NCBI GenBank assembly: GCA_016186915.1
Contig: JACPKU010000004.1
Location: forward strand, 3,168 to 67,167
From: Candidatus Doudnabacteria bacterium
GTDB lineage: Bacteria > Patescibacteriota > Doudnabacteria > UBA920 > O2-02-FULL-48-8
Length of the DNA stretch: 64,000 nt
Reading direction: 5' to 3'
Shown here: piece by piece, positions 6,139-64,000 of the stretch
Layout of the letters: the number at the start of each line of letters is the position of its first letter
Position numbering within the stretch: the first letter of the stretch is position 1
Program-made: the position numbers and the translations under genes
The notes under the pieces: generated by a model
What the model saw: the letters and a program-made list of their open reading frames with translations, nothing else
Told to the model about the DNA's origin: nothing
Database searches by the model: none

Positions 6139-6140
6139 TC

Positions 6141-7092: not shown

Positions 7093-7113
7093 ATTAGTTT
7101 ACGGATTATTTAA

Positions 7114-17919: not shown

Positions 17920-17956
17920 TTGGACAACCATAGAACGATAGGTGGGTAGTTGTCCA
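17919..17956. repeat. Conserved intergenic hairpin element, copy 1 (TTGACAAC..GATAGGTG..GTTGTCAA family)
   Basis: ttggacaaccatagaacgataggtgggtagttgtccaa, between convergent ruvC and tyrS. Nearly identical elements lie at 41713 and 54144. Confidence 0.6.
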
Positions 17957-17968
17957 AAGTAGATAAGA

Positions 17969-25124: not shown

Positions 25125-26468
25125 TTGAAACCCATGACAAACCAACAGCTGTGGCAAGCCATTCTAGGCAACCTCGAATTAACTTTGAGCAAGGCAAACT
25201 TCACCACCTGGTTCAAAAACACCTCTATCATTGAAAAAAACGACCTTGGAATTATGGTCGGCGTGCCCAATGCTTTTACTAAAGAGTGGCTGCAAAACAA
25301 ATATCACCTAGAAATTCTCAAAACTTTAAAAACTATTGCTCCTGAGATAAAAGAAGTAAAATACCAGATCATCAACCCAACCCTTAACCAACCGCCGCCC
25401 GCCAGGAAGGAAACAACAAGAACCCAAACCCAGAAAACGGAAAATCAAAGCATCAACCCCAAATATACTTTTAACACCTTTGTTGTCGGCGCCAACAATC
25501 AGCTGGCCCACGCCGCCGGCATCGCCGTCAGCAAAAAACCCGGACAAGTGTATAATCCCCTGTTTATTTACGGCGGCGTGGGTTTGGGCAAAACCCACCT
25601 CATGCAGGCCGTGGGCAACGAAATCTGCAAAAAAAAGCCGGACGCCAAAATTTTATACGTTACCTCCGAGCGCTTCACGAACGAGTTTGTCTCTTCCTTG
25701 ACGCAAGGCAAGTCCGAAAATTTTAAATCCCGTTATCGCACCGTGGACGTCCTTTTGGTGGATGACATCCAGTTTTTGGCAGGCAAAGAAGGCACCCAAG
25801 AAGAATTTTTCCATACTTTCAACGCCCTCCACCAAAACAACAAGCAGGTGGTCATGACCTCGGACCGCCTGCCAAAAGAAATTCCTGCCATTGAGGAGCG
25901 GCTGGTGTCCAGGTTTGAGTGGGGGATGATTGCCGATATCCAGGCCCCTGACCTAGAAACCCGGTTGGCGATACTTAAAACCAAGGCCCGAGAAAAGAAT
26001 TACGATTTAGAACCGGAGATCTTAAACTTTATTGCCGAGACCATCCAAACCAACATCCGGGAACTGGAAGGAGCGCTAAACCGGTTAATGGTTTACTGCC
26101 AGCTCAACAACACTAGACCAACAATTGAACAAGTAAAAAGTGTGCTGATCAATGTGATTACGCCGCCAAAAAAACGCGGGGTTTCCCCCAAAAAAATTAT
26201 TGAGGTGGTGGCGGATTTTTATAATGTTACCCCGGAAGACCTGCTAAAACAGTCTCGAAAGAAAGAATACGTCAATCCAAGACAGATTGCCATGTATATT
26301 ATTAGAAAAGAGCTGGAAACCTCCCTTCCTTCTATTGGAGAGTTTTTTGGCGGCCGGGACCATACAACCGTGATCCACGCCGTGGACAAAATTGAAAGAG
26401 CAATCAAGGAAAAAAGCGGGTTGAAGCAAGAAATTGATTTGGTAAAAGACAGGATATATATTAATTAA
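25125..26468 (+). CDS. dnaA: Chromosomal replication initiator DnaA
   Basis: Walker A GGVGLGKTHL, the sensor/box VII region, and a C-terminal DNA-binding domain. Confidence 0.95.
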   Translation: MKPMTNQQLWQAILGNLELTLSKANFTTWFKNTSIIEKNDLGIMVGVPNAFTKEWLQNKYHLEILKTLKTIAPEIKEVKYQIINPTLNQPPPARKETTRTQTQKTENQSINPKYTFNTFVVGANNQLAHAAGIAVSKKPGQVYNPLFIYGGVGLGKTHLMQAVGNEICKKKPDAKILYVTSERFTNEFVSSLTQGKSENFKSRYRTVDVLLVDDIQFLAGKEGTQEEFFHTFNALHQNNKQVVMTSDRLPKEIPAIEERLVSRFEWGMIADIQAPDLETRLAILKTKAREKNYDLEPEILNFIAETIQTNIRELEGALNRLMVYCQLNNTRPTIEQVKSVLINVITPPKKRGVSPKKIIEVVADFYNVTPEDLLKQSRKKEYVNPRQIAMYIIRKELETSLPSIGEFFGGRDHTTVIHAVDKIERAIKEKSGLKQEIDLVKDRIYIN

Positions 26469-26688
26469 CTGTTCACAACCTGTTGTTTGACAGGGGGATA
26501 AATTGTAAAGAAAAATCTTAAATATTTTTTTCCCTCTTAATTTCAAAAACTTAACAAACCCTTCCCAACAGCTTACTAACAGCTTAACAAAAAAAATAAT
26601 TATTCCTTAAACCCAAACAAACAACCAAAACAAACCCTTATACACAAACCCACCGGTTCTAATATAATTATTATTTATTTATAAACTT

Positions 26689-27786
26689 ATGAAAGTAGTT
26701 TGTACAAAAGAGAATCTTAAAAAGGGGCTGTATATGGTTGGTCGGGTGGTGGGGGTCGGGAATCCTTTACAGGTTCTAAACAATATTTTAATCAAAACCG
26801 ACTCCGGAAGAGTGAAGCTTTCTTCAACCAACCTAGAAATTGGAGTAAATACTTGGGTGGGAGGAAAAATCAGCGAAGAAGGAGCACTAACAGTGCCAGC
26901 AAGAATCATTAATGAATACATAAATAATCTGCCAACCGAAAAGGTATCCTTGTCCACCAAAGAAACAACTTTAAATCTCGAGTCAGACAATTACCACACC
27001 AACATCAATGGCCTGCCAGCCGACGACTTTCCGCTCATTCCGCAGATTAAAGAGGAAGCTTTTGCCAAGGTTGACGCAGATGAGTTAAGAGACGCCCTTT
27101 CTGAAACAATCTGGGCGGCGGCAACCAACGAGTCCCAACCCGAAATTTCAGGCATCTTTTTCTCCTTTGAAGAAAACAAACTCACCATTGCCAGCACTGA
27201 CCGATACCGGCTGGCAGAGCGCAAATGTCTTTTAAAAACCAGGGTTCGGGAGAAAAAAGAGGTGATCATCCCATCTAGAACAATTAGCGAACTGTACAAA
27301 ATACTGGGCAGCGGCCTTAAGGATGTGGAAATTTATTTTTCCGAAAGCCAGGTGCTGTTTAAGTTTAATGACACAGAACTAATCTCCCGACTAATTGACG
27401 GCCAATATCCGGATTATGCACAGATCGTGCCTAAAGAATTTAAAACCGAAGTGGTGGTTGGGCGTGAAGATTTAATGCACGCTTTAAGGGCCGCTGCTCT
27501 GTTCGCGTCTGAATCAAACAACATCCAACTGGAAGCCGTGGAGAAAAAAGGGCTGGTGATTAAAGCTTCTTCCGCCCAAGCCGGAGAGAACACCACTGAC
27601 ATCCAAGCAGGAGTACAGGGTCTTAACAACTCCGCCGTATTTAACCACCGCTATCTGCTTGATTGTTTGAATGTTCTGCCTGAAGCGAGAGTGGTGTTGA
27701 AACTAATCAATGACAATTCTCCTGCCATGATTGTGCCGGAGGGGCGAGATAACTATCTTTACATAGCCATGCCAACAAAGATATAA
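26689..27786 (+). CDS. dnaN: DNA polymerase III beta sliding clamp
   Basis: Three-domain clamp pattern and position after dnaA. Confidence 0.9.
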   Translation: MKVVCTKENLKKGLYMVGRVVGVGNPLQVLNNILIKTDSGRVKLSSTNLEIGVNTWVGGKISEEGALTVPARIINEYINNLPTEKVSLSTKETTLNLESDNYHTNINGLPADDFPLIPQIKEEAFAKVDADELRDALSETIWAAATNESQPEISGIFFSFEENKLTIASTDRYRLAERKCLLKTRVREKKEVIIPSRTISELYKILGSGLKDVEIYFSESQVLFKFNDTELISRLIDGQYPDYAQIVPKEFKTEVVVGREDLMHALRAAALFASESNNIQLEAVEKKGLVIKASSAQAGENTTDIQAGVQGLNNSAVFNHRYLLDCLNVLPEARVVLKLINDNSPAMIVPEGRDNYLYIAMPTKI

Positions 27787-27788
27787 GC

Positions 27789-28853
27789 ATGCAACTGGAA
27801 AGTCTGGAGCTGGAAAATTTTCGCAACTACAAAGAATTAAATGTGAGCCTTGATTCTAGACTGGTGCTGGTTTTGGGAGAGAATGCTTCGGGCAAAACCA
27901 ATTTTATAGAAAGCGTTTATTTTTTGTCCCGTTTAAAATCGTTCCGGGTAAGTGATGATCTTCTTGTGAAGCTCCAAGAAGATTATTTTAAAATTGTAGG
28001 CAGAGGAGGCACTCACGAATTTGAAACAGTGGTGCAAACTTCGCCAAGCTTTAAGCGCGTATTTAAAATTGACCAGCAAAAAGTAAAGCGGGCCAGCTGG
28101 CAAACATTCCAAGCGGTGTTGTTTGTGCCGACTGACCTCAACATGTTTGTGCTGGGTCCCGCCACCAGGCGCAAGTACTTAAACGACACCCTGGTACAGC
28201 TGGACAAAAGTTATGCCGCTGATTTGGCAAGTTTGGATCATGTGCTTAAACAGCGCTCAAGCTTGCTGGATAGAATTTATAAAAACCAGGCAGACACAGA
28301 AGAGTTGGGGTTTTGGGACCAGGAACTAGCAGGGCTTGCAATTCGAATCAGCAGACAGCGACGAGGCTTTTTGGATTTTTTAAACAAGAAGTTTGACAAG
28401 CAGTATCAAGACCTGACGGGGTTTAAAAGCAAATTTGAAATAGTATATAAAGGGTTGGGCGAGCACGCGGAGCAGGAGCAGTTTCTAGAAAAGCTCAAGC
28501 AGATTAGAGAGGCGGAGACAAGAAGCGGCACGAATTTATTGGGTCCGCATCGCGACGACTTTATTATCAACAAGGACGAAGAATTAAATGTTTATAATTC
28601 TTCCAGAGGCGAACTGCGCGAACAAGTCCTCACCATCAAGCTTTTGCAAGCCCAGTATTTAACTGATGAAAAAGACAAACCAGTGATGCTTTTGGATGAC
28701 GTGTTTTCTGAATTGGACGAACAGCGCCGCGCCATGCTTTTGGAAAATTTATTAGACTATCAAGTGTTCATCACTTCCACCGAAGAGCGCCATTTGCCGA
28801 AACTCCAAAAACAAACCCAGATTTTGAAAGTGAAGGACAATCAGATATTATAA
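27789..28853 (+). CDS. recF: DNA replication/repair protein RecF
   Basis: LELENFRNY...GENASGKTN Walker A and an SMC-like signature. Confidence 0.9.
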   Translation: MQLESLELENFRNYKELNVSLDSRLVLVLGENASGKTNFIESVYFLSRLKSFRVSDDLLVKLQEDYFKIVGRGGTHEFETVVQTSPSFKRVFKIDQQKVKRASWQTFQAVLFVPTDLNMFVLGPATRRKYLNDTLVQLDKSYAADLASLDHVLKQRSSLLDRIYKNQADTEELGFWDQELAGLAIRISRQRRGFLDFLNKKFDKQYQDLTGFKSKFEIVYKGLGEHAEQEQFLEKLKQIREAETRSGTNLLGPHRDDFIINKDEELNVYNSSRGELREQVLTIKLLQAQYLTDEKDKPVMLLDDVFSELDEQRRAMLLENLLDYQVFITSTEERHLPKLQKQTQILKVKDNQIL

Positions 28854-34382: not shown

Positions 34383-35977
34383 ATGCTTACTCCAAACGAT
34401 CGGAGTATCAGGATTAAGCAGGTTTATTCCGAGCTTGATAGAAAATTCGAAGAAGAACGGACCCAAAACCAGGCGCAGAATTTGGGGGTATCTTATATTA
34501 GCCTCTACGGGTTTCCGATTGATCACAATGTCTTGGGCATGATTTCCAAAGAAACCGCAGAGGCTACTGGTGTAATCGCGTTTTATAAGGAAGGGCGAAA
34601 CATTAAACTCGGCGCGCTTAACCCGTCGTCGGAGGTTAATAAGGTAGTTGAAGGTTTAAAGGCCAATAGCTTTTATGTCCAGCTTTATCTGATTTCGCAG
34701 AGCAGTTTTGAACACGCCTTAACTTTTTATAACCGGATTGTGAAAGCAGACAGGAAGTCGCAGGACATAAAGATTGAAGACAAGGTTTCGGAAGTAAAAA
34801 TCAATTCTTTAAAAGAGCTGGCAAATAAATTGTATAACGTGTCAGCCACGGAACTGATCCAGCTGGTTTTGGGATCGGCCCTGCCGGTAGACGCGTCTGA
34901 CATTCATCTAGAGCCGGGCGTTTCCAGCATCAAGGTGCGCTTCCGAATTGATGGCGTGTTGCAGGATGTCGCCACCTTGCCGAAAGATGAGTATCATCAA
35001 TTGGTTTCCCGAATTAAAATTTTGTCAAAACTCAAGTTAAATATAGTGACCAGTCCGCAAGACGGCAGTTTTAGTTTGACTTATAACCAGCAACCGGTGG
35101 ACATTCGCGTGTCTGTTTTGCCTTCGGCTTTCGGTGAGTCTTTCGTGCTTCGGATCTTGCGGCAGGACAAACAGGAGCTGAAGTTTGACGACTTGGGCAT
35201 TAGCGGGCTGGCGCAGAAAAATTTATTGGAACAGATGCGCAAACCCAATGGCATGATTTTAACCACCTGTCCCACTGGCAGCGGCAAGACCAGATTATTA
35301 CCTTGGAAGACCCCGTGGAGTATAGGATTCCAGGAGTCACCCAAACCCCGGTTGATAAAAAGGGAGGGTTAAGCTTTGCTCAGGGCTTGCGCGCTATCGT
35401 CAGGCAAGACCCAGACATTGTGATGGTGGGCGAGATGAGGGATCTAGAAACCGCAGAAACCGCAGCGCAAGCAGCGCTGACTGGACACATTGTGCTGTCC
35501 ACCCTGCATACCAATGACGCGGCTAGCGCCATCCCCAGGCTTTTGGATTTGGGGGTGAAGCCGTTTGTTTTGGCTCCCGCTATCAATGCAGTGATTGGTC
35601 AGCGGTTGGTGCGCCGCATTTGTTCGGCGTGCAAGACAGAATACACGCCGGAAAAAAATTTACTGGCCCGGGCCGAGCTGATTTTAAGCGGAATTTCCAA
35701 AACCGCCAAAGTAAAACTGCCGGCCAAACTGATTTTTTACCACAGTACTGGCTGTGAGGCCTGCAAAGGACTGGGCTACAAAGGCCGGGTGGGCGTATAC
35801 GAGGTATTTGTGGTGAATGAAGCAGTGGAAAAATTGATTCATCAGCAAGCCATTACCACGGAAATAAAAAGGCAAGCGGTAACTGATGGCATGGTGACCA
35901 TGGCGCAAGATGGACTGCTGAAAGCCCTGGCCGGAATCACCGATGTTGAAGAAGTGTTCCGGGTGACCGAGGAATAG
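34383..35977 (+). pseudogene. Type II/IV secretion/pilus ATPase (GspE/PilB family), disrupted by a ~40-nt deletion plus frameshift near 35293
   Basis: ORF 34383..35372 carries the T2SSE N-domain and Walker A (CPTGSGKT), then goes out of frame. ORF 35303..35977 continues with [28 protein letters not shown] and the Cys-tetrad. The segment between GSGKT and [10 protein letters not shown] (normally ~15 aa) is missing. Confidence 0.65.
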
Positions 35978-36163: not shown

Positions 36164-36715
36164 ATGAATGAACACAAATTTAATCCTGAAAAACAACCAG
36201 CCGCGAAAGCCGGTCAAATATTTGATGCTTCCCCTGAAGATGCCAGAGCAATTGCTGTCATCAGAAAACGAGGATGGGAAACCACATATGTAGATGAGGA
36301 GAAAGGAATAACGCGAGCAGATATTGATAGTCGGGGGATGGACGATGAAGACCGAATACAAAGGCACCAAGAGAGATTAAAAGAACCAAGCGAAAACGCG
36401 CATACCTGGGTCGTGAAAGTTGAGAGCCAGGTCGTGGGATTTTGCGAAGCGGTAAGCGGAGATTATAATGAAATTAAAGCAGTTTACATCCTACCAGAAT
36501 TTCAATCACAGGGCCATGGTCAGCAGCTTATGCAACAAGCCATAGAATGGATAGGACGAGATAAGGATATTTATCTGGACGTGGTGGACTTCAATACCCG
36601 AGCCATAGAGCTGTATAAGAGATTAGGTTTTGAGCTGACAGATAAAAGAGAGTTCGTGCAGTTTAAATCGGGCAAATTTATGCAAGTATTGGTAATGATA
36701 AAAAGACATGACTAA
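36164..36715 (+). CDS. GNAT family N-acetyltransferase
   Basis: Acetyl-CoA binding motif region QSQGHGQQLMQQAIEW. Confidence 0.7.
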   Translation: MNEHKFNPEKQPAAKAGQIFDASPEDARAIAVIRKRGWETTYVDEEKGITRADIDSRGMDDEDRIQRHQERLKEPSENAHTWVVKVESQVVGFCEAVSGDYNEIKAVYILPEFQSQGHGQQLMQQAIEWIGRDKDIYLDVVDFNTRAIELYKRLGFELTDKREFVQFKSGKFMQVLVMIKRHD

Positions 36716-37616
36716 GGAATTTCAGAAAAAATTGATTCTGATTGATGGACACGCGTTACTACACCGCGCTTATCACGCCCTTCCGGAAATGAACGGGCCG
36801 GACGGATTCCCCACGGGTGCGATCTTTGGGTTTTTATCAATGCTGTTTAAAGCGCTTGCAGACATTAAGCCTACCCATGCGTTAGTGACTTTTGATGTGC
36901 CCGGGCCGACTTTTCGTGATAAATTGGCCGCGGATTATAAAGCTACTAGAAAACCCACGCCAGATGACCTGACTGCGCAGCTCCCTAAATTGAAGGAAAT
37001 TTTAGAAGCCTTGGAAATTCCCGTCTATGAAAAAGCTGGGTATGAGGCAGATGATTTACTAGGAATCATTTCTCACAAAACCCCTAAGGATGTTTTAAAT
37101 ATTATTGTCACTGGCGATTTGGATATGTTGCAGTTGATTAACAGCAACACCCAAGTTTATCGGTTTAAAATTGGCTTTTCTGACATTCAAGTTTTTGATG
37201 AAAATAAAATGCTGGAGATTTATGGGCTGAAACCTTCGCAGTGGGTGGACTACAAAGCCATTCGAGGCGATACCTCGGACAATATTCCCGGGGTCAAAGG
37301 CATTGGGGAAAAGGGTGCTATGGATTTAATCAAAACCTTTGGCAGTTTGGATGGCGTGTATGCCGCGGCAGAATCAGGCAGCAGTAAGATTAAGCCGGCC
37401 ACTTTGAAAAAATTATTAGCTGACAAAAACAGCGCTTATTTGTCCCAAAAACTGGCGAACATTGATCGAAAAGGTGATTTGTCCGCCGAAGGCGGATCCG
37501 CCTTCGGCGGAGATTTTTACTTTGAACAATGCAAGCTTGGCAACTATAATAAAGACAACGTGATCAAACTCCTGCACGGTCTTGGCATCAAGGCCTTAAC
37601 TAACCGTCTACCCTAA
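36708..37616 (+). CDS. polA: DNA polymerase I, 5'-3' exonuclease (FEN) domain ORF
   Basis: LILIDGHALLHRAYHAL..., the metal-binding acidic clusters, and a helix-hairpin-helix. It ends at a TAA at 37614. Confidence 0.8.
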   Translation: MTKEFQKKLILIDGHALLHRAYHALPEMNGPDGFPTGAIFGFLSMLFKALADIKPTHALVTFDVPGPTFRDKLAADYKATRKPTPDDLTAQLPKLKEILEALEIPVYEKAGYEADDLLGIISHKTPKDVLNIIVTGDLDMLQLINSNTQVYRFKIGFSDIQVFDENKMLEIYGLKPSQWVDYKAIRGDTSDNIPGVKGIGEKGAMDLIKTFGSLDGVYAAAESGSSKIKPATLKKLLADKNSAYLSQKLANIDRKGDLSAEGGSAFGGDFYFEQCKLGNYNKDNVIKLLHGLGIKALTNRLP

Positions 37617-37669
37617 GGTATATTTCACCATCGCGAGCCCCGACGTTACAGTCGGAGCGCGGCAATCCC

Positions 37670-39178
37670 TTGGTGAGATTGCTTCGGCGCAAGCTGCTCG
37701 CAAAGACAAGAACTATGATTATCAAGAACAAAGAACAAGCAATAATCGCAGGCTATCTTCTCAACCCGGGCCAAAGGCATTACCAAGTCGGCGGTCCGGC
37801 ATCTTGGAAGCACTTATTTAGTAAGCTTAGAGTCAAAAAGCTGCTGAAAATATTCGAAGAGATTGAATTGCCACTGATGCCAGTCTTGGCCAAAATGGAA
37901 AAAAGAGGTATTAAACTTGATCTCAAACAGCTGCGACAGTTGAGCAAAAAATTAACCAGCCGGATAGACAAGCTGACCAAACAAATTTATCGCCAAGCCG
38001 GCAAAAAGTTTAATGTTGCTTCTCCGATTCAACTGCGGGATGTGTTGTTTGAGCACTTGAAGATTCCAACAGAAAACTTGCGCAAAACCGGCAAAACCAA
38101 AGCTTTGTCCACGGCGGCCACAGAACTGGAAAAGTTGCGGGAATTGCACCCGATTATTGATTTGATTTTGGAATATCGAGAACTGACCAAGCTGAAATCC
38201 ACTTATGTCGATGCCTTGCCGGAACTGGTGGGGGCGGACGGCAGATTGCATACCAAATACAGTCAGACGGTGGCGGCCACGGGGAGGCTTTCTTCCTCTG
38301 ATCCCAATTTACAAAACATCCCAATTCGTACCGAGCTTGGCAACCAGGTGCGCAAAGCTTTTGTGGCAGAAAAGGGATTTGTCTTAGCTTCTCTGGATTA
38401 TTCCCAAATTGAACTGCGCATTGCCGCCACCTTATCAGGCGATAAAGAAATGATCAAGATTTTCTCCGCCGGAGGCGGATCCGCCTTTGGCGGAAAAGAC
38501 GGCGATTTTCACGCCTCCACCGCTTCGAGAATTTTTGACACTCCTGAGTCAAAAGTAACACCCAGACAGCGCCGGGACGCCAAGACCATCAATTTCAGTG
38601 TGCTTTACGGCGTGTCGGCTTTTGGCTTATCCTCCCGCTCTGAAATGAGCCAAGCCGAGGCCCGGGATTATATCAACAAATATTATGAGGTGTTTAAAGA
38701 TTTAAAAAAATATATAGACACCACAATCAAACAAGCGCATGAAGATGAATTTGTGACTAATCCTTTGGGACGGATCAGAAATTTTGCCGAGATTAATTCG
38801 CCTGTTTATCCAATCCGAGCTGCGGCAGAGCGCGCGGCGTTTAATATGCCGCTCCAATCTTTGGCCGCTGACATCATGAAAATGGCCATGATTCGTATAG
38901 ATGAATTTTTGCAAAATTCATCTATCTCTGATTTAATCTCCCCCTCGGGGGGAGATGCCGCCAAAGGCGACAGAGAGGGGAAAACTGCTGTAAACGACGA
39001 GTGTCGCTTACTCCTGTCAGTGCATGATGAATTGGTGTTTGAAATTAAAAAAGGCAAAGAAAAACAATACTTGCCGAAAATCAAAAAAATTATGGAAACG
39101 GTTTATCAATTATCAGTGCCAGTAACGGTGGATGTAAAAGTGGGAAAGAACTGGATGGAGATGAAAGAATTGGAATAG
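37670..39178 (+). CDS. polA: DNA polymerase I polymerase domain ORF, in a different frame from the upstream exo ORF
   Basis: Pol A motifs DYSQIELRI (motif A), RRDAKTINFSVLYG (motif B) and HDELVFE (motif C). It starts in the vestigial 3'-5' exo region (IIAGYLLNPG). The frame is open back to 37604 and overlaps the upstream ORF end. Confidence 0.8.
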   Translation: MVRLLRRKLLAKTRTMIIKNKEQAIIAGYLLNPGQRHYQVGGPASWKHLFSKLRVKKLLKIFEEIELPLMPVLAKMEKRGIKLDLKQLRQLSKKLTSRIDKLTKQIYRQAGKKFNVASPIQLRDVLFEHLKIPTENLRKTGKTKALSTAATELEKLRELHPIIDLILEYRELTKLKSTYVDALPELVGADGRLHTKYSQTVAATGRLSSSDPNLQNIPIRTELGNQVRKAFVAEKGFVLASLDYSQIELRIAATLSGDKEMIKIFSAGGGSAFGGKDGDFHASTASRIFDTPESKVTPRQRRDAKTINFSVLYGVSAFGLSSRSEMSQAEARDYINKYYEVFKDLKKYIDTTIKQAHEDEFVTNPLGRIRNFAEINSPVYPIRAAAERAAFNMPLQSLAADIMKMAMIRIDEFLQNSSISDLISPSGGDAAKGDREGKTAVNDECRLLLSVHDELVFEIKKGKEKQYLPKIKKIMETVYQLSVPVTVDVKVGKNWMEMKELE

Positions 39179-39929: not shown

Positions 39930-40098
39930 GCGTCCTCCTCTTAATCACAAAATACCAGTCGTTGAGTTTTGCGTCAACTTATTTTAGTCTATGTCTTTTC
40001 ATTCTCTGCTTCTCGCGGGTGGCAGATTTAGTATTGGGCATAAGTTAGGTGATAGATGAATAGTTTAACAAAAAACGGATACATAATTAAGCGGACAG

Positions 40099-40866
40099 TT
40101 ATTCCCGAATTGTTGAGTCAACATATTTAAATAAAGCTTTTAATGTATTGGCAATATTTTTGTCTTCAATAATCACAGCTATGGGATTATTTTCAGAAAA
40201 AGAAAAAATGGCTGTTTTATCATCGTAAATATCAATCTCGGTATCAAAAGCATATTCTATTGGGATAAATTTGGTAATTCTGGCAACAGCCTTATCTCTT
40301 TTTTTACTTTCGCGCGACCAATCGGTGTCAGGAGCAATGTCGTAACATTTTATTCCAAGTTTAGCTCTTTTAGTAATATAATAGTAAACCCAATCAGCTC
40401 CCATTTTTTTAAACACAGCATCAGTACCAGTAAAATCATAAAGATTTTTTTCTTTATTATTCAGGAGAGTATCTTCATAGGCTTGCTTAATCCCCTCTAT
40501 TCCCTGAAAGAATTGAATTTTCGGAAAACTTATTTGCTTGTTTCGTACTGCTTCAATTTCCGGCAGTATTTTTTCTATTTCTGCTTTACTTTTTGATAAA
40601 TCAAGTTTCTTGTTTTCTATATAATTTACCAATAAACGTGGAGAAATAGATTGGAATTCCAAAATTTTTCCTTGTTCCGTTGAAGAAGCAAGCCCTTTTT
40701 CTATTAAAGATTTTAAAACTCCGTAAGCAGTGGTTCGGTTAAGTTTGGCCAATCTGGCAACTTCTTTGACCTTTAAAGAGGCATGTTCAAGTAGAATTGA
40801 CAACACAACTATTTCGTTATTGTTAAGATCTATATTTTTAATGAGTTGTTCTATTTGTTGTCTCAT
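40099..40866 (-). CDS. TrmB family transcriptional regulator
   Basis: N-terminal wHTH VLSILLEHASLKVKEVARLAKLNRTTAYGVLKSLIEKGL typical of TrmB. Confidence 0.65.
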   Translation of the reverse strand: MRQQIEQLIKNIDLNNNEIVVLSILLEHASLKVKEVARLAKLNRTTAYGVLKSLIEKGLASSTEQGKILEFQSISPRLLVNYIENKKLDLSKSKAEIEKILPEIEAVRNKQISFPKIQFFQGIEGIKQAYEDTLLNNKEKNLYDFTGTDAVFKKMGADWVYYYITKRAKLGIKCYDIAPDTDWSRESKKRDKAVARITKFIPIEYAFDTEIDIYDDKTAIFSFSENNPIAVIIEDKNIANTLKALFKYVDSTIRE

Positions 40867-40875
40867 AATAAAGTC

Positions 40876-40903
40876 ATTATAGAATTTTGTCTAATTTTGT
40901 CAA
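40876..40903 (-). promoter_or_regulatory. Promoter for the TrmB-like gene: TTGACA-N16-TATAAT on the minus strand
   Basis: Minus-strand sequence ttgacaaaattagacaaaattctataat. It lies within an outward-facing inverted TTGTCAAC/TTGACAA pair. Confidence 0.55.
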
Positions 40904-40919
40904 CAATTTTGGAAAATAA

Positions 40920-40947
40920 TTGACAAATCAGCCTAAGTAATTAAGAT
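40920..40947 (+). promoter_or_regulatory. Divergent promoter TTGACA-N16-TAAGAT for the radical-SAM-like gene
   Basis: ttgacaaatcagcctaagtaattaagat. It uses the same TAAGAT -10 as the promoter at 6265. Confidence 0.5.
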
Positions 40948-40981
40948 ATAATTGTCCGTTAGAAAGGACAAAGGAGGGTTT

Positions 40982-41614
40982 ATGAAAAAAGTGGTGGCGG
41001 TGCAGTTGCCAGCGCCATATTGCGGCATTGGCTGTTCATTCTGTCGAACGGCAAATGAGCATGGTGGCGATGTCAGCGCCGTTCGACGGGCTCTTTCCGA
41101 GCAGCTTGCGGACTGTGAAGAAGTCTATCTGACCAGCGTAGGCGAGACCGGGAATTGTGCCGAGTTCCAGGACATTGTGCAGATGTTGCAGGAACGAGGC
41201 ATTCCGGTATCGGTACTCTGCGCAACGGCGCAGTCAGTAGTGGCTGGTCTCAAGCGAGTTGAGATCAGTTACGAGGAAGATGAACCAACGGCGTTCACAG
41301 CCCCGCTGGCGATAGCGAAGGCTAGGAAGCTTGGGGTCCCGGTGGTCCTGTCCGTGGTGGACAAGGGCAACAAGGCTATCAATCCCCAGGCACTCACCGA
41401 GCGGTTCAATGTGTCAGGGGTGCTGATCCGAGCGTTGCAGGCTGAGGGGCACTCACGCTCCTGCCATGGTCACAGCTCGTTCTGGGTCAGTGATTCAGCA
41501 GAGCTTGGCGCGTTCCCGGTCGGAGCATATCGGGAGCTTGCCAGCATTGGGGTCTCGGCTGTCTGCATCGACCACCTCGGACGGCAAGTTCAGTACTTAG
41601 GAGCAGCCGCCTGA
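40982..41614 (+). CDS. Small radical SAM-like protein (CxxxCxxC), GC-rich
   Basis: YCGIGCSFC (C-x3-C-x2-C) near the N-terminus. SD aggaggg before the ATG at 40982. G/C-rich codon usage. Confidence 0.45.
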   Translation: MKKVVAVQLPAPYCGIGCSFCRTANEHGGDVSAVRRALSEQLADCEEVYLTSVGETGNCAEFQDIVQMLQERGIPVSVLCATAQSVVAGLKRVEISYEEDEPTAFTAPLAIAKARKLGVPVVLSVVDKGNKAINPQALTERFNVSGVLIRALQAEGHSRSCHGHSSFWVSDSAELGAFPVGAYRELASIGVSAVCIDHLGRQVQYLGAAA

Positions 41615-41712
41615 CTTCAATGGGCACGCCCTGTTTGTTTACAGGACACGGCCCCGTTTTTTTATTTCAACTTGTACTTCTCCGTCCTTTGCTACTACCG
41701 GATGATCACGAT

Positions 41713-41748
41713 TTGACAACCACCATGCGATAGGTGGGTGGTTGTCAA
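41713..41748. repeat. Conserved intergenic hairpin element, copy 2
   Basis: ttgacaaccaccatgcgataggtgggtggttgtcaa. Confidence 0.6.
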
Positions 41749-41788
41749 GTTAGATGACTTTGAATTTTTAGAGATTTTAATACATCAC

Positions 41789-43808
41789 ATCACTTATGTC
41801 TTTTCATCCGTTGTTTGTCGCGGATGCTGGCGATTTGATCGCGAAGGCCGGCGGCTTGTTCAAAGTCCAGATTTCTGGCCGCCAAGTCCATTTGATCCCG
41901 CAATTCTTCGATCAGGTACGCGACTTCCTGCCGGGTCATTTTGTTTAAGTCGATCCGTGATCCGTGATCCGTGATCCGTGACTCCTCTTTCTTACCCGCA
42001 AGACGTGATTCTTTCACTGCTTTTTCTATGCCCTTGGGAGTAATGCCATACTTTTTATTATAGTCTTCCTGAATCTTGCGTCGCCGTTCAACTTCGGCAA
42101 TAGCCCGTTGCATAGAACCCGTGATTTTGTCTGCATACATAATCACATGGCCTTCGATGTGGCGGGCTGCCCGGCCCATGGTTTGAATGAGTGAAGTGTC
42201 GGAGCGCAGGAACCCTTCTTTGTCAGCATCCAGGATCGCCACCAGCGACACTTCTGGCAGATCCAGACCTTCGCGCAGAAGATTGATGCCCACCACCACG
42301 TCATAAATGCCTAATCTTAGATCGCGCAGAATCTCTAAGCGTTCCAAGGTGTCCACGTCAGAGTGCAGGTAATGCACCTTGATGTTGTATTCAGTCAAAT
42401 ACTGCGCCAGTTCCTCTGCCGTGTTTTTGGTTAAGGTGGTGACCAGCACGCGTTGTTTTCCGCCGGCAGGCAGGTTCACTCTTTTCTGGATTTCTTCCAT
42501 CAAATCATCCACTTGGTTTTTCGTTGGTCTGACTTCTATCTTGGGATCCAAAAGCCCGGTCGGGCGGATAAGTTGCTGCGCCACTTGTTTGGAAATTTTT
42601 AACTCCCGGTCTTTTACCGGGGTGGCCGACACAAATATGGTTTGGCTAATTCGTTTTTCAAACTCTTCAAATTTTAAAGGCCGATTGTCAGCGGCAGAAG
42701 GCAGGCGAAACCCATAATCAATCAAAGTTTGTTTGCGGGACTTGTCTCCCAAATACATGCTCCCAATTTGCGGCAGGGTCATGTGCGATTCGTCTATAAA
42801 TAACAGAAACTCATCTGGAAAATAATCCAAAAGCGTGGAAGGCGGCTCACCGGGAGAGCGAAAATCCATGTGCCGCGAGTAGTTTTCAATGCCGTTGACA
42901 TAACCGGTTTCCAGCATCATCTCAATGTCAAAGTTCGTGCGCTGTTCAATGCGCTGGGCTTCGATCGCCCTGTCTTTACTTTTGAAAAATTTGACTTGTT
43001 TTTTTAGCTCGTCGCGGATGTTGTCTACGGCCTTAAACAATTTTTCTTTGGTGGTGACAAAGTGTTTGGCCGGGAAGACGGTCAGATGTTGAATCGAACC
43101 TAGATCGCTGCCGGTGAGAGGATCGTGAATGGATATTTTTTCGATTTCATCCCCGAAGAAGTTGACTCGATAGATTTTGTCCTCGGAAGCCGGGATCAGT
43201 TCAACAGTGTCGCCGCGGACGCGGAAATTGCCCCGCTCAAGATTGACATCGTTGCGGATGAATTGCAGGTCAGTGAGTTTGCGCAAGAGCTTGTCTCGTT
43301 TGCTGCTTGCCCCAACTTTTAGAGGGACAGACAGGTCCAGATAATCACCCGGACTGCCCAAGCCGTAAATGCAGGAGACCGAAGCCACGATTAAGACATC
43401 CGAGCGAGACAGCAGGCTTTGCGTGGCCGCGTTTCTTAACTTGTCAATTTCTTCATTAATTTCCGTTTCCTTTTCGATGTAGGTATCGGAGCGCGGAATA
43501 TAGGCCTCGGGCTGGTAGTAATCATAGTAGGAGACGAAGTAGTGCACGGCGTTGTCCGGGAAGAAATCCTGAAATTCGCTGGCTAATTGGGCAGCTAAGG
43601 TTTTGTTATGCGAAATGACCAGAGTCGGCTTATTAATTTTTTCCACCACATTGGCCATAGTAAAAGTCTTCCCACTACCCGTCACGCCCAAAAGCGTCTG
43701 GTAGCGGAATTTTTTATGCAACCCTGAAACCAATTTTTCTATGGCCTGCGACTGGTCGCCAGCCGGTTTGAAATTTGAACGCAGCTTGAAATGCATAGCA
43801 ACCTTCAT
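41789..43808 (-). CDS. uvrB: Excinuclease ABC subunit B
   Basis: [12 protein letters not shown] Walker A, helicase motifs, and a C-terminal UVR domain ([13 protein letters not shown]). Confidence 0.95.
41952..41979. repeat. Tandem heptamer (GATCCGT)x4 in frame inside uvrB
   Basis: gatccgtgatccgtgatccgtgatccgt. On the minus strand it encodes TDHGSRI. Confidence 0.8.
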
Positions 43809-54141: not shown

Positions 54142-54143
54142 TT

Positions 54144-54179
54144 TTGACAACTACCATGCGATAGGTGGGTAGTTGTCAA
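54144..54179. repeat. Conserved intergenic hairpin element, copy 3
   Basis: ttgacaactaccatgcgataggtgggtagttgtcaa. Confidence 0.6.
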
Positions 54180-54322
54180 GGGGGAAAATCGGGGTGTTTT
54201 AAAAGAGGCTTACGGCTCTTTTTCTTTTTAGTGGAGCAGATTTGATCAGGCGCCTGCTCCGATTCGCCGTCTTCGGCGAGGCGGAAAAACCTGCTTTCGC
54301 TTTAGTTAGCCATAAATAAGGA

Positions 54323-56968
<2,646 letters not shown>

Positions 56969-56996
56969 CGGGATCTTTCGATTTCGCTTCGCTTCA

Positions 56997-57038
56997 CTCA
57001 GGGATCAAGCTATGTTGTTGCCTGAGCTTGTCGAAGGC
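56997..57038. repeat. ~42-bp hairpin repeat, copy I (intergenic)
   Basis: ctcagggatcaagctatgttgttgcctgagcttgtcgaaggc. Confidence 0.7.
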
Positions 57039-57189: not shown

Positions 57190-58299
57190 TCAGGCAAGAG
57201 CAAGGTTCGGGTCAGCGACGAATGTCTTAGTGGGTAGTTTGCTCCGACGCTTCGGTCGGAGTCTCGACCTGACAATTTCAGCGTCGGGATAGTGGGTAGT
57301 GAGTAGTTTGTAATGAGCAGCAAGACCAATCATTGCGGCATTGTCTGTGCAGTATTTAAGCGGGGGGATACTGACTGAGAGCTGATAGCTCTTAGCTAAT
57401 AGCTTATAGCGAGCACGCAGGAGGTCGTTGGCTGCAACACCACCGCCGAGCATAATAGTTTTGGGTTGGTATTTTTTAATCGCTTGTTCTGTTTTGGCAA
57501 TCAGGACATCCACGATGGCTTGCTGGACGGAGGCGGCTAAGTTAGCTTTTAGCTTCCCTCTCTGTCCATTCCCGCGAAAGCGGGAATCTAATTTTTGGAC
57601 CTCATATAAAACAGCGGTTTTGAGTCCGGAAAAACTGAAATTTAAATCATCAGAATTAATCATCGGACGAGGAAACTTAAAAGCATGAGGATTGCCGTTT
57701 TTTGCAAGCTTGCTTAAATGCGGCCCACCAGGATATGGTAGTCCCAACAGTCTTGCGGTTTTATCAAATGCCTCGCCTGCAGCATCATCTACGGTTTCGC
57801 CAATGATTTTGTATTGCCCGTGTCCTCGCATCAGTACTAACATAGTATGCCCGCCGGAGACAATCAAGATAATCGCGGGAAATTTGACCCTTCGACTACG
57901 CTCAGGGATCAAACTTTTATGTTGCCTGAGCTTGTCGAAGGCAACGTTGGCATAGATGTGCGCCTCGAGATGATTAATCGGTAAAACCGGTTTGTTCAAG
58001 GTTAAGCCTAAAGTTTTGGCAGTGTCTACGCCCACCATAAGAGACGTCATCAGCCCTGGCCCTTTTGTTACTGCGATATAGTCAATTTCCGCAAGTTTGG
58101 TTTTGGCTTTCTTGAGGGCCAGGTTAATGGTTGGGATGATAGAAAGGACGTGTTCTCTGGCTGCCACTTCCGGCACTACCCCGCCGTATTTCAGGTGGGT
58201 CTTGGCCTGCGAGGCCAAGATATTGGATTTGATTTGGCCGTTAACGATTATGGCTGCGCCAGTTTCATCACAACTGGTTTCAAGGGCGAGTATTGTCAT
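57190..58299 (-). CDS. tsaD: tRNA N6-adenosine threonylcarbamoyltransferase TsaD (Kae1/Gcp)
   Basis: MTILALETSCDETGAAI, the His-His metal motif region, and SGGVAAN. It carries an internal repeat-derived insertion and a C-terminal extension. Confidence 0.9.
   Translation of the reverse strand: MTILALETSCDETGAAIIVNGQIKSNILASQAKTHLKYGGVVPEVAAREHVLSIIPTINLALKKAKTKLAEIDYIAVTKGPGLMTSLMVGVDTAKTLGLTLNKPVLPINHLEAHIYANVAFDKLRQHKSLIPERSRRVKFPAIILIVSGGHTMLVLMRGHGQYKIIGETVDDAAGEAFDKTARLLGLPYPGGPHLSKLAKNGNPHAFKFPRPMINSDDLNFSFSGLKTAVLYEVQKLDSRFRGNGQRGKLKANLAASVQQAIVDVLIAKTEQAIKKYQPKTIMLGGGVAANDLLRARYKLLAKSYQLSVSIPPLKYCTDNAAMIGLAAHYKLLTTHYPDAEIVRSRLRPKRRSKLPTKTFVADPNLALA
57901..57942. repeat. ~42-bp hairpin repeat, copy II (in frame inside tsaD)
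   Basis: ctcagggatcaaacttttatgttgcctgagcttgtcgaaggc. The minus strand encodes FDKLRQHKSLIPER. Confidence 0.7.
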
Positions 58300-61044: not shown

Positions 61045-61119
61045 GGCCTCATCGTCTAACGGTTAGGACGCCAGGTTTTCATCCTGGTAATCGGGGTTCG
61101 ATTCCCCGTGAGGCTGCCA
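61045..61119 (+). tRNA. tRNA-Glu (anticodon TTC)
   Basis: ggcctcatcgtctaacggttaggacgccagg-ttTTCat-cctgg..ggggttcgattcccc..gaggctgcca. Confidence 0.85.
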
Positions 61120-61210: not shown

Positions 61211-61489
61211 ATGGTGCTGGATCTGCCTAAAAATATGTTTTACTATGTTTACGTTTTGAGAAATGAATCAGGCCGACTGTATATTGGTTATACTGAAAAC
61301 GTTGAGCAAAGAATTACCGATCATAATACCGGCAAAGTATTTTCCACCAAACCATATATTCCTTACAAACTAATTTTCTATGAAGCTTATATTTCAATGA
61401 AAGACGCTAAGCGTCGCGAACAATATTTAAAAACAGCGAAAGGTAGAACAACTATTAAAACAATGTTGATTAATACACTGGCTAACTAG
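61211..61489 (+). CDS. GIY-YIG nuclease family protein (small, stand-alone)
   Basis: YYVYVLRNESGRLYIGYTENVEQRITDHN is a GIY-YIG motif. Confidence 0.75.
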   Translation: MVLDLPKNMFYYVYVLRNESGRLYIGYTENVEQRITDHNTGKVFSTKPYIPYKLIFYEAYISMKDAKRREQYLKTAKGRTTIKTMLINTLAN

Positions 61490-61639: not shown

Positions 61640-62716
61640 CTAGACTTCCCGGTCGTCGTCTAGGTTGTCCTCATCCTTCTCGTCATCAAAGTCCTCGTCG
61701 TCATCGAGGTCGCTGTCGTCTTCGTCTTCTTCCTCCGGCAAATCCTGTGGGCCGGGCAAGTTATTCTGATCGAGCGAGGCATCATAATAGAAGCATGCCT
61801 CGAACGCCTCCGTGTGTGTGAACGTCAGCTCCCAACCTTGGCAGAACACGAAACCGAAGCCGATCTCATGGTGTTGTCTCTGTGAAGGTTCCCGGAACAG
61901 GAAGAGTTGCGCCTTGTACTTAGAACCCTTCTTCTTGTCCTCGTCCTTGTAGACGCGCTTGCGCGGCATGGATCTGGCCGATTCCGGATTCTGCCTCCAG
62001 ATCGACCAAACCAGCGCCTCTACATCATCAGCGGAAATGAAGCGCTGAATGTCGTTCAACGAGGCGTTGGTATCCCAGAGTTCGTGAACGATCTCGCAGA
62101 GCTCGTCACGGTACGACGGCACCTCCGTTGATCCAATACGTGCTGCAAGCACGAGTTTTCGCAGTCGGCTCCAGTAATCGGTGGAGGCAACCGGAGCACA
62201 ACCGGCGTACACAGCCTGATCCAACGCGAGCGTCCTGTTCTTCCACTCGTGAATAAACCACGGAAAGCCCGCTGCCTTGTGAGCGGCGGCCATCCTGCGG
62301 ATCTCCTTGAGTGTTGGAAATGTCTTTCCATGAGCCTCGATCAGTCGCTCGACTTCCTCGTGCGTAATGGCCCTGCGCTGTCTGCGTGTCCAGCCTGGGC
62401 CACCTCTTGAGCTTCTTCTGGCGATTTCTTCCTGCTCGACCCTGGCCAGATCGTTGTCGTCGATGCCAAACGTGGCGCGTTCATCATTGCGGATCCAGAT
62501 CTTCGCCTTCACGTGGGCGAACCCGCAGTAGACGATTCTTCCGGAGAGCTCGAGCGTATTCGAACCACCTGGGGCATTGTTGACCGCCGTCACACGAAAT
62601 TCGTAGGTGGCACCAGTGGTGTCGGTGGTGGTAATCGTTACAAAATCATCCACGACCGCCTTTCGGATCACGTGCACAGGAGTGAGAATGCGGCAAGTAG
62701 TATAGCGCTCTTTCAT
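61640..62716 (-). CDS. Hypothetical GC-rich protein with a poly-acidic C-terminal tail (start reassigned to the SD-preceded ATG at 62716)
   Basis: aaggagg 6 nt upstream of ATG 62716. G/C-ending codons. C-terminus EEEDEDDSDLDDDEDFDDEKDEDNLDDD. The AT-rich 5' portion in the ORF track (62717..62884) is probably non-coding. Confidence 0.45.
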   Translation of the reverse strand: MKERYTTCRILTPVHVIRKAVVDDFVTITTTDTTGATYEFRVTAVNNAPGGSNTLELSGRIVYCGFAHVKAKIWIRNDERATFGIDDNDLARVEQEEIARRSSRGGPGWTRRQRRAITHEEVERLIEAHGKTFPTLKEIRRMAAAHKAAGFPWFIHEWKNRTLALDQAVYAGCAPVASTDYWSRLRKLVLAARIGSTEVPSYRDELCEIVHELWDTNASLNDIQRFISADDVEALVWSIWRQNPESARSMPRKRVYKDEDKKKGSKYKAQLFLFREPSQRQHHEIGFGFVFCQGWELTFTHTEAFEACFYYDASLDQNNLPGPQDLPEEEDEDDSDLDDDEDFDDEKDEDNLDDDREV

Positions 62717-62914
62717 GAGAAGCCTCCTTAGGCTTGTCTTGCTTTGCTCCACTCGCGAAAATGCGAATGGCAGATGCTTGTTCAGCAGCTGAAAAATAGC
62801 AACGTAATTGCCACTTTTCAATCGCTGATTATAACAATCAATCCTAATACAAAAAGGGCCCTTTGTCAAGGCTTTTTTGATCATGCTAAACTGGTAGTCG
62901 TACTAAGGATTTGT

Positions 62915-62976
62915 AAATATCCCTAACCATAGCCAAAAAGGTTTTCCACCTGTCTCGACTTGGCCTGCCAATTAGA
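62915..62976 (+). repeat. Direct repeat DR-1 (~62 bp)
   Basis: aaatatccctaaccatagccaaaaaggttttccacctgtctcgacttggcctgccaattaga. Confidence 0.75.
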
Positions 62977-63024
62977 ATTTTGCAATCGGAATCGAAGGAC
63001 GCGAGATAGTGAGCGAAGCGAAAA

Positions 63025-63858
63025 GTGCAATTTAACAGCTTTCTTGGTATTATATTTATAGATCAAACTAAGATGAAACAAAAAGGTTCTAATTTAAAGC
63101 TGGTTCTAATTTTAACAATTCTTGGGTTGCTTGTCCTAATTTTAGGAAGTCAATTACCGTCCTACACTCGTTTAGCATTGGTTTTTTTAATACTACCTAC
63201 ACTTTTTGTTTTTCTCAAAAATGGGAATCATATAGACAAGAAAAAATTATTGGTCACATGCTTTTTAGCGATTATTGCTACCATAATTTGGGATAACATT
63301 GCTATAGAATTTAAAGTATGGGATTTTCCAATGGAAAGTGTTATAGGTTGGTTATTTGGAGCACCAATTGAGGAATATTTCTTCGCTTTTTGGATCGTTG
63401 CTATGAGTGTAGGTATCTACACTTCTCTACATAAAAAAAGAACGGTGATCAATGTCCCTCATTTTAAAATCGTTCCTTTAATAATGTTGGTAGCGGTATT
63501 ACAAATATTAGTACTATACTCTTTGATTTTTCATAATCCTGAGTCATACATAAAATGGCTATTGGTGTTTGCAATTATACCCTCCTTCTTTTATATTTTT
63601 AGAAAAGGTGAAAAAATAAGCTATCCTAAGCTTATTTTGACTGCATCCATTATGGGTTTGATTACGATCCCTTACGACTACATATTCATGTCTCATAGCT
63701 GGTATCATTATGACACTGCTATTATTGGACGCATCGTCGGAGTTCCTATTGATGATATTTTATTCAGCTTCTTTACTTCCATTACCATAATTGGATTCTA
63801 TACTTCAGTGCCACACAATCATCCCTTCACAGGTAAATGGTTGGACAAGGATATATAA
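63025..63858 (+). CDS. Polytopic membrane protein (hypothetical), bracketed by direct repeats
   Basis: About 8 TM helices. Lower GC than the neighbouring genes. Confidence 0.45.
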   Translation: MQFNSFLGIIFIDQTKMKQKGSNLKLVLILTILGLLVLILGSQLPSYTRLALVFLILPTLFVFLKNGNHIDKKKLLVTCFLAIIATIIWDNIAIEFKVWDFPMESVIGWLFGAPIEEYFFAFWIVAMSVGIYTSLHKKRTVINVPHFKIVPLIMLVAVLQILVLYSLIFHNPESYIKWLLVFAIIPSFFYIFRKGEKISYPKLILTASIMGLITIPYDYIFMSHSWYHYDTAIIGRIVGVPIDDILFSFFTSITIIGFYTSVPHNHPFTGKWLDKDI

Positions 63859-63919
63859 ATATCCCTAACCATAGCCAAAGTAGTTTTCCACCTGTCTCGA
63901 CTTGGCCTGCCAAATTAGA
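63857..63919 (+). repeat. Direct repeat DR-2 (~62 bp; ~90% identical to DR-1)
   Basis: aaatatccctaaccatagccaaagtagttttccacctgtctcgacttggcctgccaaattaga. Confidence 0.75.
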
Positions 63920-64000
63920 CAAGTTTATATATGAATTTTGAGCCGAATTTAGAAAAAACACACGAAGTATTATTCTCAGAGCCTCAAGGTCTGGTTTCGA

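Follow-up and report, generated by a model that had tools for sequence, protein, structure and literature searches.

The gene and the repeats that bracket it

A gene for a polytopic membrane protein with predicted lycopene-cyclase domains lies between two direct repeats (DR-1 and DR-2) close to the right-hand end of a 64-kb stretch of chromosome from Candidatus Doudnabacteria, which belongs to the Candidate Phyla Radiation (CPR, Patescibacteria). This whole stretch of DNA is referred to as the window, and all positions without a contig name are window positions. The repeats, the gene between them and the way in which this arrangement may have come about are the subject of the present analysis. 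From left to right, the locus consists of the following features:

62905..62976, plus strand: DR-1, the left copy of the repeat (72 nucleotides), in the divergent intergenic region and 35 nucleotides past the promoter module of the left neighbour, open reading frame (ORF) 358
62977..63072, plus strand: leader of 96 nucleotides from DR-1 to the start codon, the left part of the putative insert
63073..63858, plus strand: lycopene-cyclase-domain gene encoding 261 amino acids (NCBI MBI2607366.1), with its last three codons and stop (K-D-I-stop) inside DR-2
63847..63919, plus strand: DR-2, the right copy of the repeat (73 nucleotides), its first 12 nucleotides belonging also to the end of the gene

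The protein is an exact match to the database entry MBI2607366.1, which comes from a contig of 134,948 bp in a Candidatus Doudnabacteria metagenome-assembled genome (MAG). The original prediction, made from the DNA letters of this locus, had described a protein of 277 amino acids. That length belongs to the mechanical ORF that begins at the GTG at 63025, and the public annotation gives 261 amino acids from the ATG at 63073. The protein matches TIGR03462 (CarR_dom_SF) in two stretches (6.6e-19; 68.2 bits against a cut-off of 39.4) and PF18916 (1.1e-6; 29.5 against a cut-off of 27). Among 10 aligned sequences a PxE(E/D) motif is invariant in both halves of the protein, as PIEE at residues 98-101 and as PIDD at residues 225-228, the invariant residues being P98, E100 and E101 in the first half and D227 and D228 in the second. 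As judged from the presence of the motif in each half, the product is a predicted fused two-domain membrane protein of the CrtYc/CrtYd type (CarR). A literature search on lycopene-cyclase-domain proteins in CPR bacteria found nothing relevant.

Relatives of the gene on mobile replicons were sought in three collections. Neither tblastn nor blastn gave a match among the INPHARED phages or the PLSDB plasmids, and IMG/VR contained no relatives of the cyclase-domain gene family or of ORF358. A phage or plasmid origin of the gene was rejected on the basis of these three collections.

Extent, copy number and edges of the repeats

DR-1 and DR-2 align over 72 and 73 nucleotides, respectively, with five substitutions and one indel. 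The ungapped part of this match (62905-62971 against 63847-63913) covers 67 nucleotides at 93% identity with a spacing of 942, and a single gap of one nucleotide extends it through ATTAGA to 62976 and 63919. Two blocks within the repeat are identical, one of 23 nucleotides (62915-62937) and one of 31 nucleotides (62941-62971). The original prediction had placed the copies at 62915..62976 and 63857..63919; the two copies in the same orientation are real, while their true start lies 10 nucleotides further left.

When the flanks upstream and downstream of the gene were aligned locally, a score of 55.5 was obtained, the maximum of 500 shuffles being 13. The edges of the repeat are sharp: identity in register drops to 7/30 just left of the repeat and to 6/30 just right of it, and when the outer flanks were aligned with gaps, no significant match emerged. 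The left end of the repeat falls within the last four codons of the gene, which read AAG GAT ATA TAA in DR-2 (63847-63858), and the matching codons in DR-1 read AAG GAT TTG TAA (62905-62916). The GC content of the repeat (0.40-0.42) is close to the window mean of 0.454.

A search of the 64 kb that tolerated up to three mismatches found exactly two occurrences of each half of the repeat, where 0.00 were expected by chance. Neither blastn-short nor a repeat scan of the whole window detected a third copy, and the exact 20-22-nucleotide cores of both repeat halves are absent from the GTDB representative genomes, the JGI metagenomes and IMG/VR. Additional copies elsewhere, for which the original prediction had suggested looking, did not appear in any of these places.

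Logan contigs from several sequencing runs match both junction halves exactly. These contigs, which were assembled with k = 31, break exactly at the 31-nucleotide core (L001 corresponds to 62942-63912, and L002-L006 end at 62970), and in a graph of k = 31 an integrated unit looks the same as a circle accompanied by an empty site. The 942-bp unit might on these grounds be an artefact of assembly or of population mixture, that is, an assembly-graph loop, a circle or a strain variant sharing the 31-nucleotide core that was threaded into the MAG contig. We consider this highly improbable. The longest exact repeat is 31 nucleotides and the copies differ on both sides of it; k-mers longer than 31 and reads of 150 nucleotides would resolve the path, and identical junction halves are present in at least six runs.

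Integron, transposon and RNA readings of the repeat

One explanation offered in the original prediction was an integron-cassette-like unit. The attC site of such a cassette is an imperfect inverted repeat, R''(RYYYAAC)-L''...L'-R'(GTTRRRY), that forms a long hairpin as single-stranded DNA. No fold of this type was found in the repeats. When both copies were folded as DNA, on both strands, the minimum free energies ranged from -5.4 to -8.5 kcal/mol and the z-scores from -0.2 to -1.9, and the folds are weak, differ between the copies and never pair the ends of the element. By inspection, CCCTAAC (62921-62927) and the 3' ATTAGA(A/C) are complementary at 4/7 positions. A Pfam scan of the 56 non-overlapping window ORFs of at least 90 amino acids revealed no integrase, recombinase or transposase domain. 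With neither an attC hairpin nor an integrase in 64 kb, the integron cassette was rejected. A literature search on attC sites in Patescibacteria found nothing relevant.

An insertion sequence or transposon with target-site duplication was rejected as well. There are no terminal inverted repeats and there is no transposase, and the duplication measures 72 nucleotides, target duplications of transposons being short (2-14 bp). The repeat was also considered as a structured RNA. This reading was discarded on account of folds that are unremarkable and not conserved between the copies and of the lack of an Rfam match: in the window only tRNAs exceed the gathering threshold, and nothing with an E-value below 1 was detected in 62700-64000.

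Composition of the gene and genomic context of its homologues

The gene has a GC content of 32.8%, compared to 45.4% for the window, and a GC content at third codon positions (GC3) of 0.32, compared to a median of 0.49 (standard deviation 0.10). The lower GC that the original prediction had ascribed to it is borne out by these values. In the leader, the first 63 nucleotides have a GC content of 44% and the last 33 nucleotides one of 21%, and no clear Shine-Dalgarno sequence is present. At the other end of the gene, most homologues stop at ...GKW; the window protein adds LDKDI, of which K-D-I-stop lies within the repeat. The right boundary of the putative insert is located 6 nucleotides (two codons) past the conserved C-terminus of the family.

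Homologues of the protein at 40-70% identity have different neighbours in every CPR contig examined. A scan of JGI data with the family alignment for further contexts yielded only three short loci. The contexts found were:

L008: between RidA and Tag
L012: directly after tRNA-Asp
L013: between SMC and VanY
L016: after RecJ-RNaseH
L018: after a sortase
L023: before PAP2-infC-rpmI-rplT
L027: with HicAB inside a glycolysis cluster (HicAB and enolase)

Because the context differs in each contig, the cyclase-domain gene is, to judge from these placements, probably a singleton that moves.

In three CPR contigs a motif of ~23 nucleotides (consensus about AAnRGTTYTAACRTCRTYC) was identified on both sides of the homologous gene, on the coding strand, and one further contig carries a single copy:

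L008, 565 and 1415: motif pair, AATAGATTTTAACGTCATTCACT and ATTAGATTCTAGCGTCATTCACA
L018, 5437 and 6302: motif pair, TAAAGGTTCTAACATCGTCCCAC and AAAAGGTTTTAATATCGTCTCCC
L021 (= L023), 262 and 1296: motif pair
L019, 6383: single copy upstream of an ORF358-like gene

Across ~49 kb of related loci, nothing else scored 12 bits or more. The flank-to-flank alignment was significant for L008 (1/1000) and L018 (4/1000) and not significant for L021. With a position weight matrix (PWM) built by leaving out one locus at a time, the flanking sites were the top two in L023 and L008 and the L019 site scored 28.6 bits; the L018 sites were missed. The window repeat was rejected as a member of this motif, of which the window has no copy, as the PWM from all 7 sites gives the repeats -7.5 bits and the best score in the window, 12.8, lies elsewhere.

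If the 72-nucleotide pair and the ~23-nucleotide motif pairs of L008, L018 and L021/L023 are all taken as recombination sites, the lycopene-cyclase-domain genes of CPR bacteria would travel as recombinase-less single-gene cassettes between direct repeats of an undescribed system, and the window might show only the first unit of an array running on past position 64000. We consider such a system very unlikely.

The motif pairs also bear on the idea that the 72-nucleotide element is a duplicated functional cis-element under selection (a promoter or operator, a small RNA or a terminator) through which the bracketed gene and the next one are co-regulated. The presence of a conserved ~23-nucleotide motif on both sides of the homologous gene in three related contigs would agree with this, as would the position of DR-2, which occupies the entire spacer before the next ORF, and an imperfect palindrome in the right half of the repeat (TGTCT..TTGG CCTG CCAA..AGACA). 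However, neither a sigma-70-like promoter nor an intrinsic terminator was detected within the repeat, Rfam gave no match, and the two copies fold differently, neither in an exceptional way. The window repeat is, moreover, unlike the motif of its relatives, as seen from the PWM score, and the downstream start codon follows at a distance of 96 nucleotides in one case and 11 nucleotides in the other. A cis-element of this kind is therefore improbable. A shared leader of two paralogous genes, which the original prediction had named as the finding that would overturn its reading, is rejected on the strength of the same unequal distances between repeat and ATG (96 for the first gene, 11 for the second ORF), the lack of a promoter-like site within the repeat and the N-terminus of the second ORF (ORF R, described below), which is unlike that of the bracketed gene.

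A second islet at the end of uvrB

The window contains another insert between duplicated ends. A second copy of the last ~10 codons of uvrB (41795-41826) is found at 39990-40021, with 81% identity over 32 nucleotides, and the two copies enclose a two-gene insert of 1.8 kb (the uvrB islet, 40022-41794) with the following genes:

40099-40866: TrmB-like regulator, GC 0.32
40952-41614: ORF of 220 amino acids without a family, GC 0.58

No integrase is found inside the islet. The copy of the uvrB end at 39990-40021 reads ...TREKQRMKRHRLK followed by a stop, and its relic translation is KSATREKQRMKRHRLK, again followed by a stop. Four codons differ within the RDKQR stretch; three of these differences are silent (AAA/AAG, CAA/CAG, CGG/AGA), and the remaining one, GAC/GAG, changes D to E. 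Such mostly synonymous differences indicate that both 32-nucleotide copies descend from functional uvrB ends. The uvrB islet is a fully visible parallel to the cyclase-domain locus, with the same layout in the same window, and it supports the general idea of an insertion.

Proposed insertion with duplicated junctions

At the cyclase-domain locus, compositionally foreign DNA has a direct repeat at each of its ends, the arrangement by which attL and attR are recognized. We propose that 62977-63846 is a foreign insert of ~0.87 kb, both junctions of which carry a duplicated 72-nucleotide host sequence in the manner of attL and attR, and we assign this reading a probability of about 0.5. It builds on direct observations, namely sharp-edged repeats, a gene of foreign composition, homologues whose context varies, the lack of both an attC fold and an integrase, and the second islet. 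The att-like insertion of the original prediction is retained insofar as it agrees with the foreign composition, the variable homologue context and the sharp repeat edges, and it is given up in its integron-cassette version.

According to this model, foreign DNA consisting of the 96-nucleotide leader and the cyclase-domain gene would have entered a variable, tRNA-Glu-proximal stretch of the Candidatus Doudnabacteria chromosome. The gene would have been trimmed to within two codons of the conserved C-terminus of its family. The insertion may either have recombined through the 72-nucleotide host sequence or have duplicated it, leaving one copy on each side, and a Campbell-type recombination through short homology is one option for the crossover. 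The reading frame would then have continued into the right-hand copy of the repeat to end there at K-D-I-stop. The only ORF on the unit is the lycopene-cyclase-domain gene, with no integrase or excisionase beside it. As the unit encodes no recombinase, it would either have been integrated by a trans-acting enzyme from elsewhere or have arrived through host recombination with a circular or linear donor over a short homology. The repeats would stay substrates for precise loss of the gene. That a single insertion event created the duplication, and by which enzyme, we infer rather than see directly.

Several points weigh against this model. Neither an empty site nor a third copy nor a donor was found, the repeat core being absent from the GTDB representatives, the JGI metagenomes and IMG/VR, and none of the window ORFs in the 64 kb carries an integrase or transposase domain. 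The repeat copies differ by ~7%, which implies either an old duplication or two sequences that were never the same. The window stops 81 nucleotides after DR-2, and more copies may lie further to the right. Under a model of random junctions, a boundary 6 nucleotides past the conserved end of the protein would be a coincidence, and a two-step history of tandem duplication followed by deletion would yield the same picture, the original prediction having likewise named a tandem-duplication junction as an alternative. On balance, the locus is most likely a small islet flanked by direct repeats, a fairly ordinary insertion scar.

Sequence to the right of DR-2

The 81 nucleotides between DR-2 and the end of the window have a GC content of 0.35. 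Two putative ORFs on opposite strands overlap in this region:

63931..64000, plus strand: start of ORF R (MNFEPNLEKTHEVLFSEPQGLVS...), a putative gene that runs past the window edge
63827..64000, minus strand: antisense ORF Q (...SNLAGQVETGGKLLWLWLGIFIYPCPTIYL, then stop), putative, from the window edge through DR-2 to the TGA at 63827-63829

Neither of them has a Pfam or NCBIfam match. The N-terminus of ORF R (23 amino acids, X-padded) shares no words with any of 5.8 billion proteins, and the tail of ORF Q (57 amino acids) has no match among 1.84 billion representatives. A codon test on the 23 codons outside the repeat gave a difference (R minus Q) of +6.7 with the host model and of +0.8 with the low-GC model. 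True genes beat the same antisense frame by ~22 (host-gene model) or 11 (low-GC model) on average, and only 0.4-3.7% of the true-gene windows fared as badly as Q. The codon score of ORF R is weakly gene-like, and both R and Q are atypical of real genes.

ORF Q gives rise to a rival explanation, in which a convergent gene Q enters from the right and the repeat represents its last 24 codons. An element would have integrated into this 3' end and brought a replacement end, and DR-1 would be the displaced original 3' end, a layout as in the uvrB islet, whose geometry is identical. Read inwards from the window edge, the minus strand indeed has 57 codons without a stop, which take in DR-2. The corresponding frame in DR-1, once the 1-nucleotide indel is corrected, ends in a TAG at 62903-62905 that coincides exactly with the repeat's left edge, and the competing ORF R is found in no protein database. 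However, Q is disfavoured by the codon usage of its 23 codons beyond the repeat, where it loses to R under both models, and each of the five substitutions that separate the copies is non-synonymous when read in frame Q. Its tail remains unmatched among the representatives searched, and a 32-nucleotide overlap with the bracketed gene would be implied. We regard this explanation as distinctly unlikely.

Left-hand neighbours and the tRNA-Glu-proximal stretch

The last three genes of the window, which follow tRNA-Glu, are all GC3 outliers. In addition to the cyclase-domain gene, this stretch comprises:

61045..61119, plus strand: tRNA-Glu (TTC), bordering the patch of compositional outliers
61211..61489, plus strand: small gene of the GIY-YIG nuclease family, a member of the outlier patch (GC3 0.31)
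61640..62716, minus strand: ORF358, the left neighbour (414 amino acids at NCBI, MBI2607365.1, HYW51_00900), GC 0.56, GC3 0.68

ORF358 is modular and has a long acidic tail, and its promoter and 5' untranslated region (UTR) reach as far as TTGACA at 62864-62869. No family was assigned to it in Pfam, NCBIfam or PHROG, and its AlphaFold model is of low confidence (predicted local distance difference test, pLDDT, of 49) and too poor for a fold search. The idea that ORF358 is a hidden recombinase gained no support from these family searches and was rejected.

The first 99 codons of ORF358, together with ~150 nucleotides of promoter and 5' UTR, share 78% DNA identity with an unrelated ENA contig (L019, 6538-6947). 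This homology ends at ~62870, at TTGACA and 35 nucleotides before DR-1. On that contig the N-terminal domain of ORF358 is joined to a different C-terminal part (P0015), and the C-terminal domain of ORF358 is common to P0014. To judge from these shared parts, ORF358 is a shuffled, mobile protein module, and the left neighbour would likewise be a transferred one. The Logan contig L006 (SRR12113385), followed leftward, agrees letter for letter with the window between 62970 and 61279 and then diverges inside the GIY-YIG gene, which suggests strain-level variation at that gene. No syntenic relatives were obtained with the neighbouring anchor protein of 795 amino acids, which has no relatives in the GTDB genomes.

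The nature of the left neighbour is relevant to another history, in which the locus is the relic of a tandem-unit or cassette array. The 72-nucleotide element would be a 3' module, made up of an ORF tail and a spacer, that follows each ORF of a series; DR-1 would be all that remains of a unit upstream, the ORF358 module having taken the place of the body of that unit, and more units would perhaps lie to the right. DR-1 does resemble the tail of a gene and its downstream spacer (AAG GAT TTG TAA), and the insert is tightly trimmed to its ORF. The ORF358 module is apparently mobile itself and ends 35 nucleotides from DR-1, and the 81 nucleotides past DR-2 are again of low GC. Yet this history requires two events, and no leftover similarity to the 3' region of the gene was detected on the left-hand side of DR-1 (p = 0.09-0.6). 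The visible copies number only two, and they come with neither an attC-like structure nor an integrase. An array relic is therefore unlikely, and we retain the insertion with duplicated junctions as the preferred reading.

Other features of the window

The window is an ordinary segment of a CPR chromosome with rpoB/rpoC, gyrA, ruvABC, uvrB, polA and eight tRNAs. The genes dnaA-dnaN-recF are located at 25125-28853 and the minimum of the cumulative GC skew at ~26-27 kb; the window therefore likely spans the replication origin.

A second patch of compositional outliers among tRNA genes was found at 5313-8529. It includes an ORF with a LAGLIDADG domain (5313-6005, GC3 0.29) that abuts tRNA-Phe, an ORF of 192 amino acids without a family (6445-7023, GC3 0.84) and truD (GC3 0.31).

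Other repeats occur elsewhere in the window. A nearly perfect, GC-rich palindrome of 34 nucleotides (TCCGCCGAAGGCGGATCCGCCTTCGGCGGA) occurs at 37478-37511 and 38461-38494, in frame in both ORFs of a split polA (36708-37616 and 37670-39178), where each copy encodes ..GGSAFGG.., and a weaker third match is located at 56858-56891 in valS. Its appearance is that of a small palindromic insertion in coding DNA. A partly palindromic repeat of 47 nucleotides (CTCAGG...CCTGAG; 87% identity) is present at 56992-57038 and 57896-57942, one copy lying in the tsaD coding sequence (..AFDKLRQHKSLIPERS..) and the other in the valS-tsaD spacer (AFDKLRQQHSLIPE, then stop). A hairpin element of 38 nucleotides with a perfect stem of 12 bp (TTGACAACCACC...GGTGGTTGTCAA) has three copies. 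Those at 17920-17957 and 54143-54180 are situated between convergent gene ends (ruvC and tyrS; an ORF with a Gmad2 domain and valS, respectively), and the one at 41712-41749 lies just past the end of uvrB, within the inserted islet. This hairpin could be a bidirectional terminator or a family resembling repetitive extragenic palindromic (REP) elements. Runs of the heptamer GATCCGT (~4 units) were observed in the coding regions of uvrB (41952-41993) and valS (55803-55844).

Two genes of the window are split. The gene of a type II/IV secretion ATPase (T2SSE) is represented by overlapping ORFs at 34383-35372 and 35303-35977, and polA (36708-39178) by an exonuclease ORF and a polymerase ORF. Both cases may be frameshifts, sequencing errors or genuine splits.

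Significance

The genomes of CPR bacteria (Patescibacteria) are small and contain few recognisable mobile elements, and for this reason gene gain in these organisms is poorly documented. The window offers two clean examples, the cyclase-domain gene and the uvrB islet, in which one or two foreign genes are found between duplicated host junctions with no recombinase aboard. If this pattern is general, it would suggest that CPR bacteria gain genes by a route that acts in trans or is driven by homology. The cargo is notable in being a lycopene-cyclase-domain membrane protein that recurs in variable genome positions in a lineage with no visible carotenoid pathway. As it stands, the finding is a modest one, a fairly ordinary insertion scar.

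Comparison with known systems

The bracketed gene product resembles the heterodimeric or fused lycopene beta-cyclases (CrtYc/CrtYd and fungal CarR; TIGR03462, PF18916) in that it is polytopic and has two tandem CarR-type domains with a PxE(E/D) motif in each. In contrast to the setting of known lycopene beta-cyclases, for which neighbours such as crtB, crtI or crtE would be expected, no carotenoid genes were seen among the window ORFs or adjoining the CPR homologues examined.

The locus shares with integron cassettes, their attC sites and clusters of attC sites lacking an integron integrase (CALIN) a tightly trimmed single ORF followed by a repeat of ~70 nucleotides, a similar element upstream and a divergent gene on the left, at the place of intI. 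It differs from them in that it has no R''-L''/L'-R' hairpin, only two copies are visible and the divergent neighbour is not a tyrosine recombinase. With junctions of tandem duplication or amplification it has in common a head-to-tail repeat, here with a period of 942 bp; however, only the 72-nucleotide end is duplicated, there is no second copy of the gene, and a later deletion would be required.

Xer-dependent modules, such as integrative mobile elements exploiting Xer (IMEX) and the pdif modules of Acinetobacter plasmids, are likewise small, recombinase-less modules that lie between short sites and are mobilised in trans. By inspection, no dif-like site of the 11-6-11 type (28 bp, with a conserved XerD arm) was recognised in the repeat, which is 72 nucleotides long and has a 4+4 palindrome (TTGG CCTG CCAA) inside a looser dyad of 30 nucleotides. 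The sites of pdif modules are in inverted orientation, whereas the repeats here are direct.

Islets bounded by attL and attR, as formed by integration next to tRNA genes or at gene 3' ends, differ from the present unit, the latter having a size of only 0.94 kb, a single cargo gene, no integrase on the unit or in the 64 kb, and no attB seen. The likeness to these islets consists in the sharp-edged direct repeats of tens of bases around foreign DNA, in the position within a tRNA-proximal variable region, and in the second islet of the same window, which duplicates the 3' end of uvrB.

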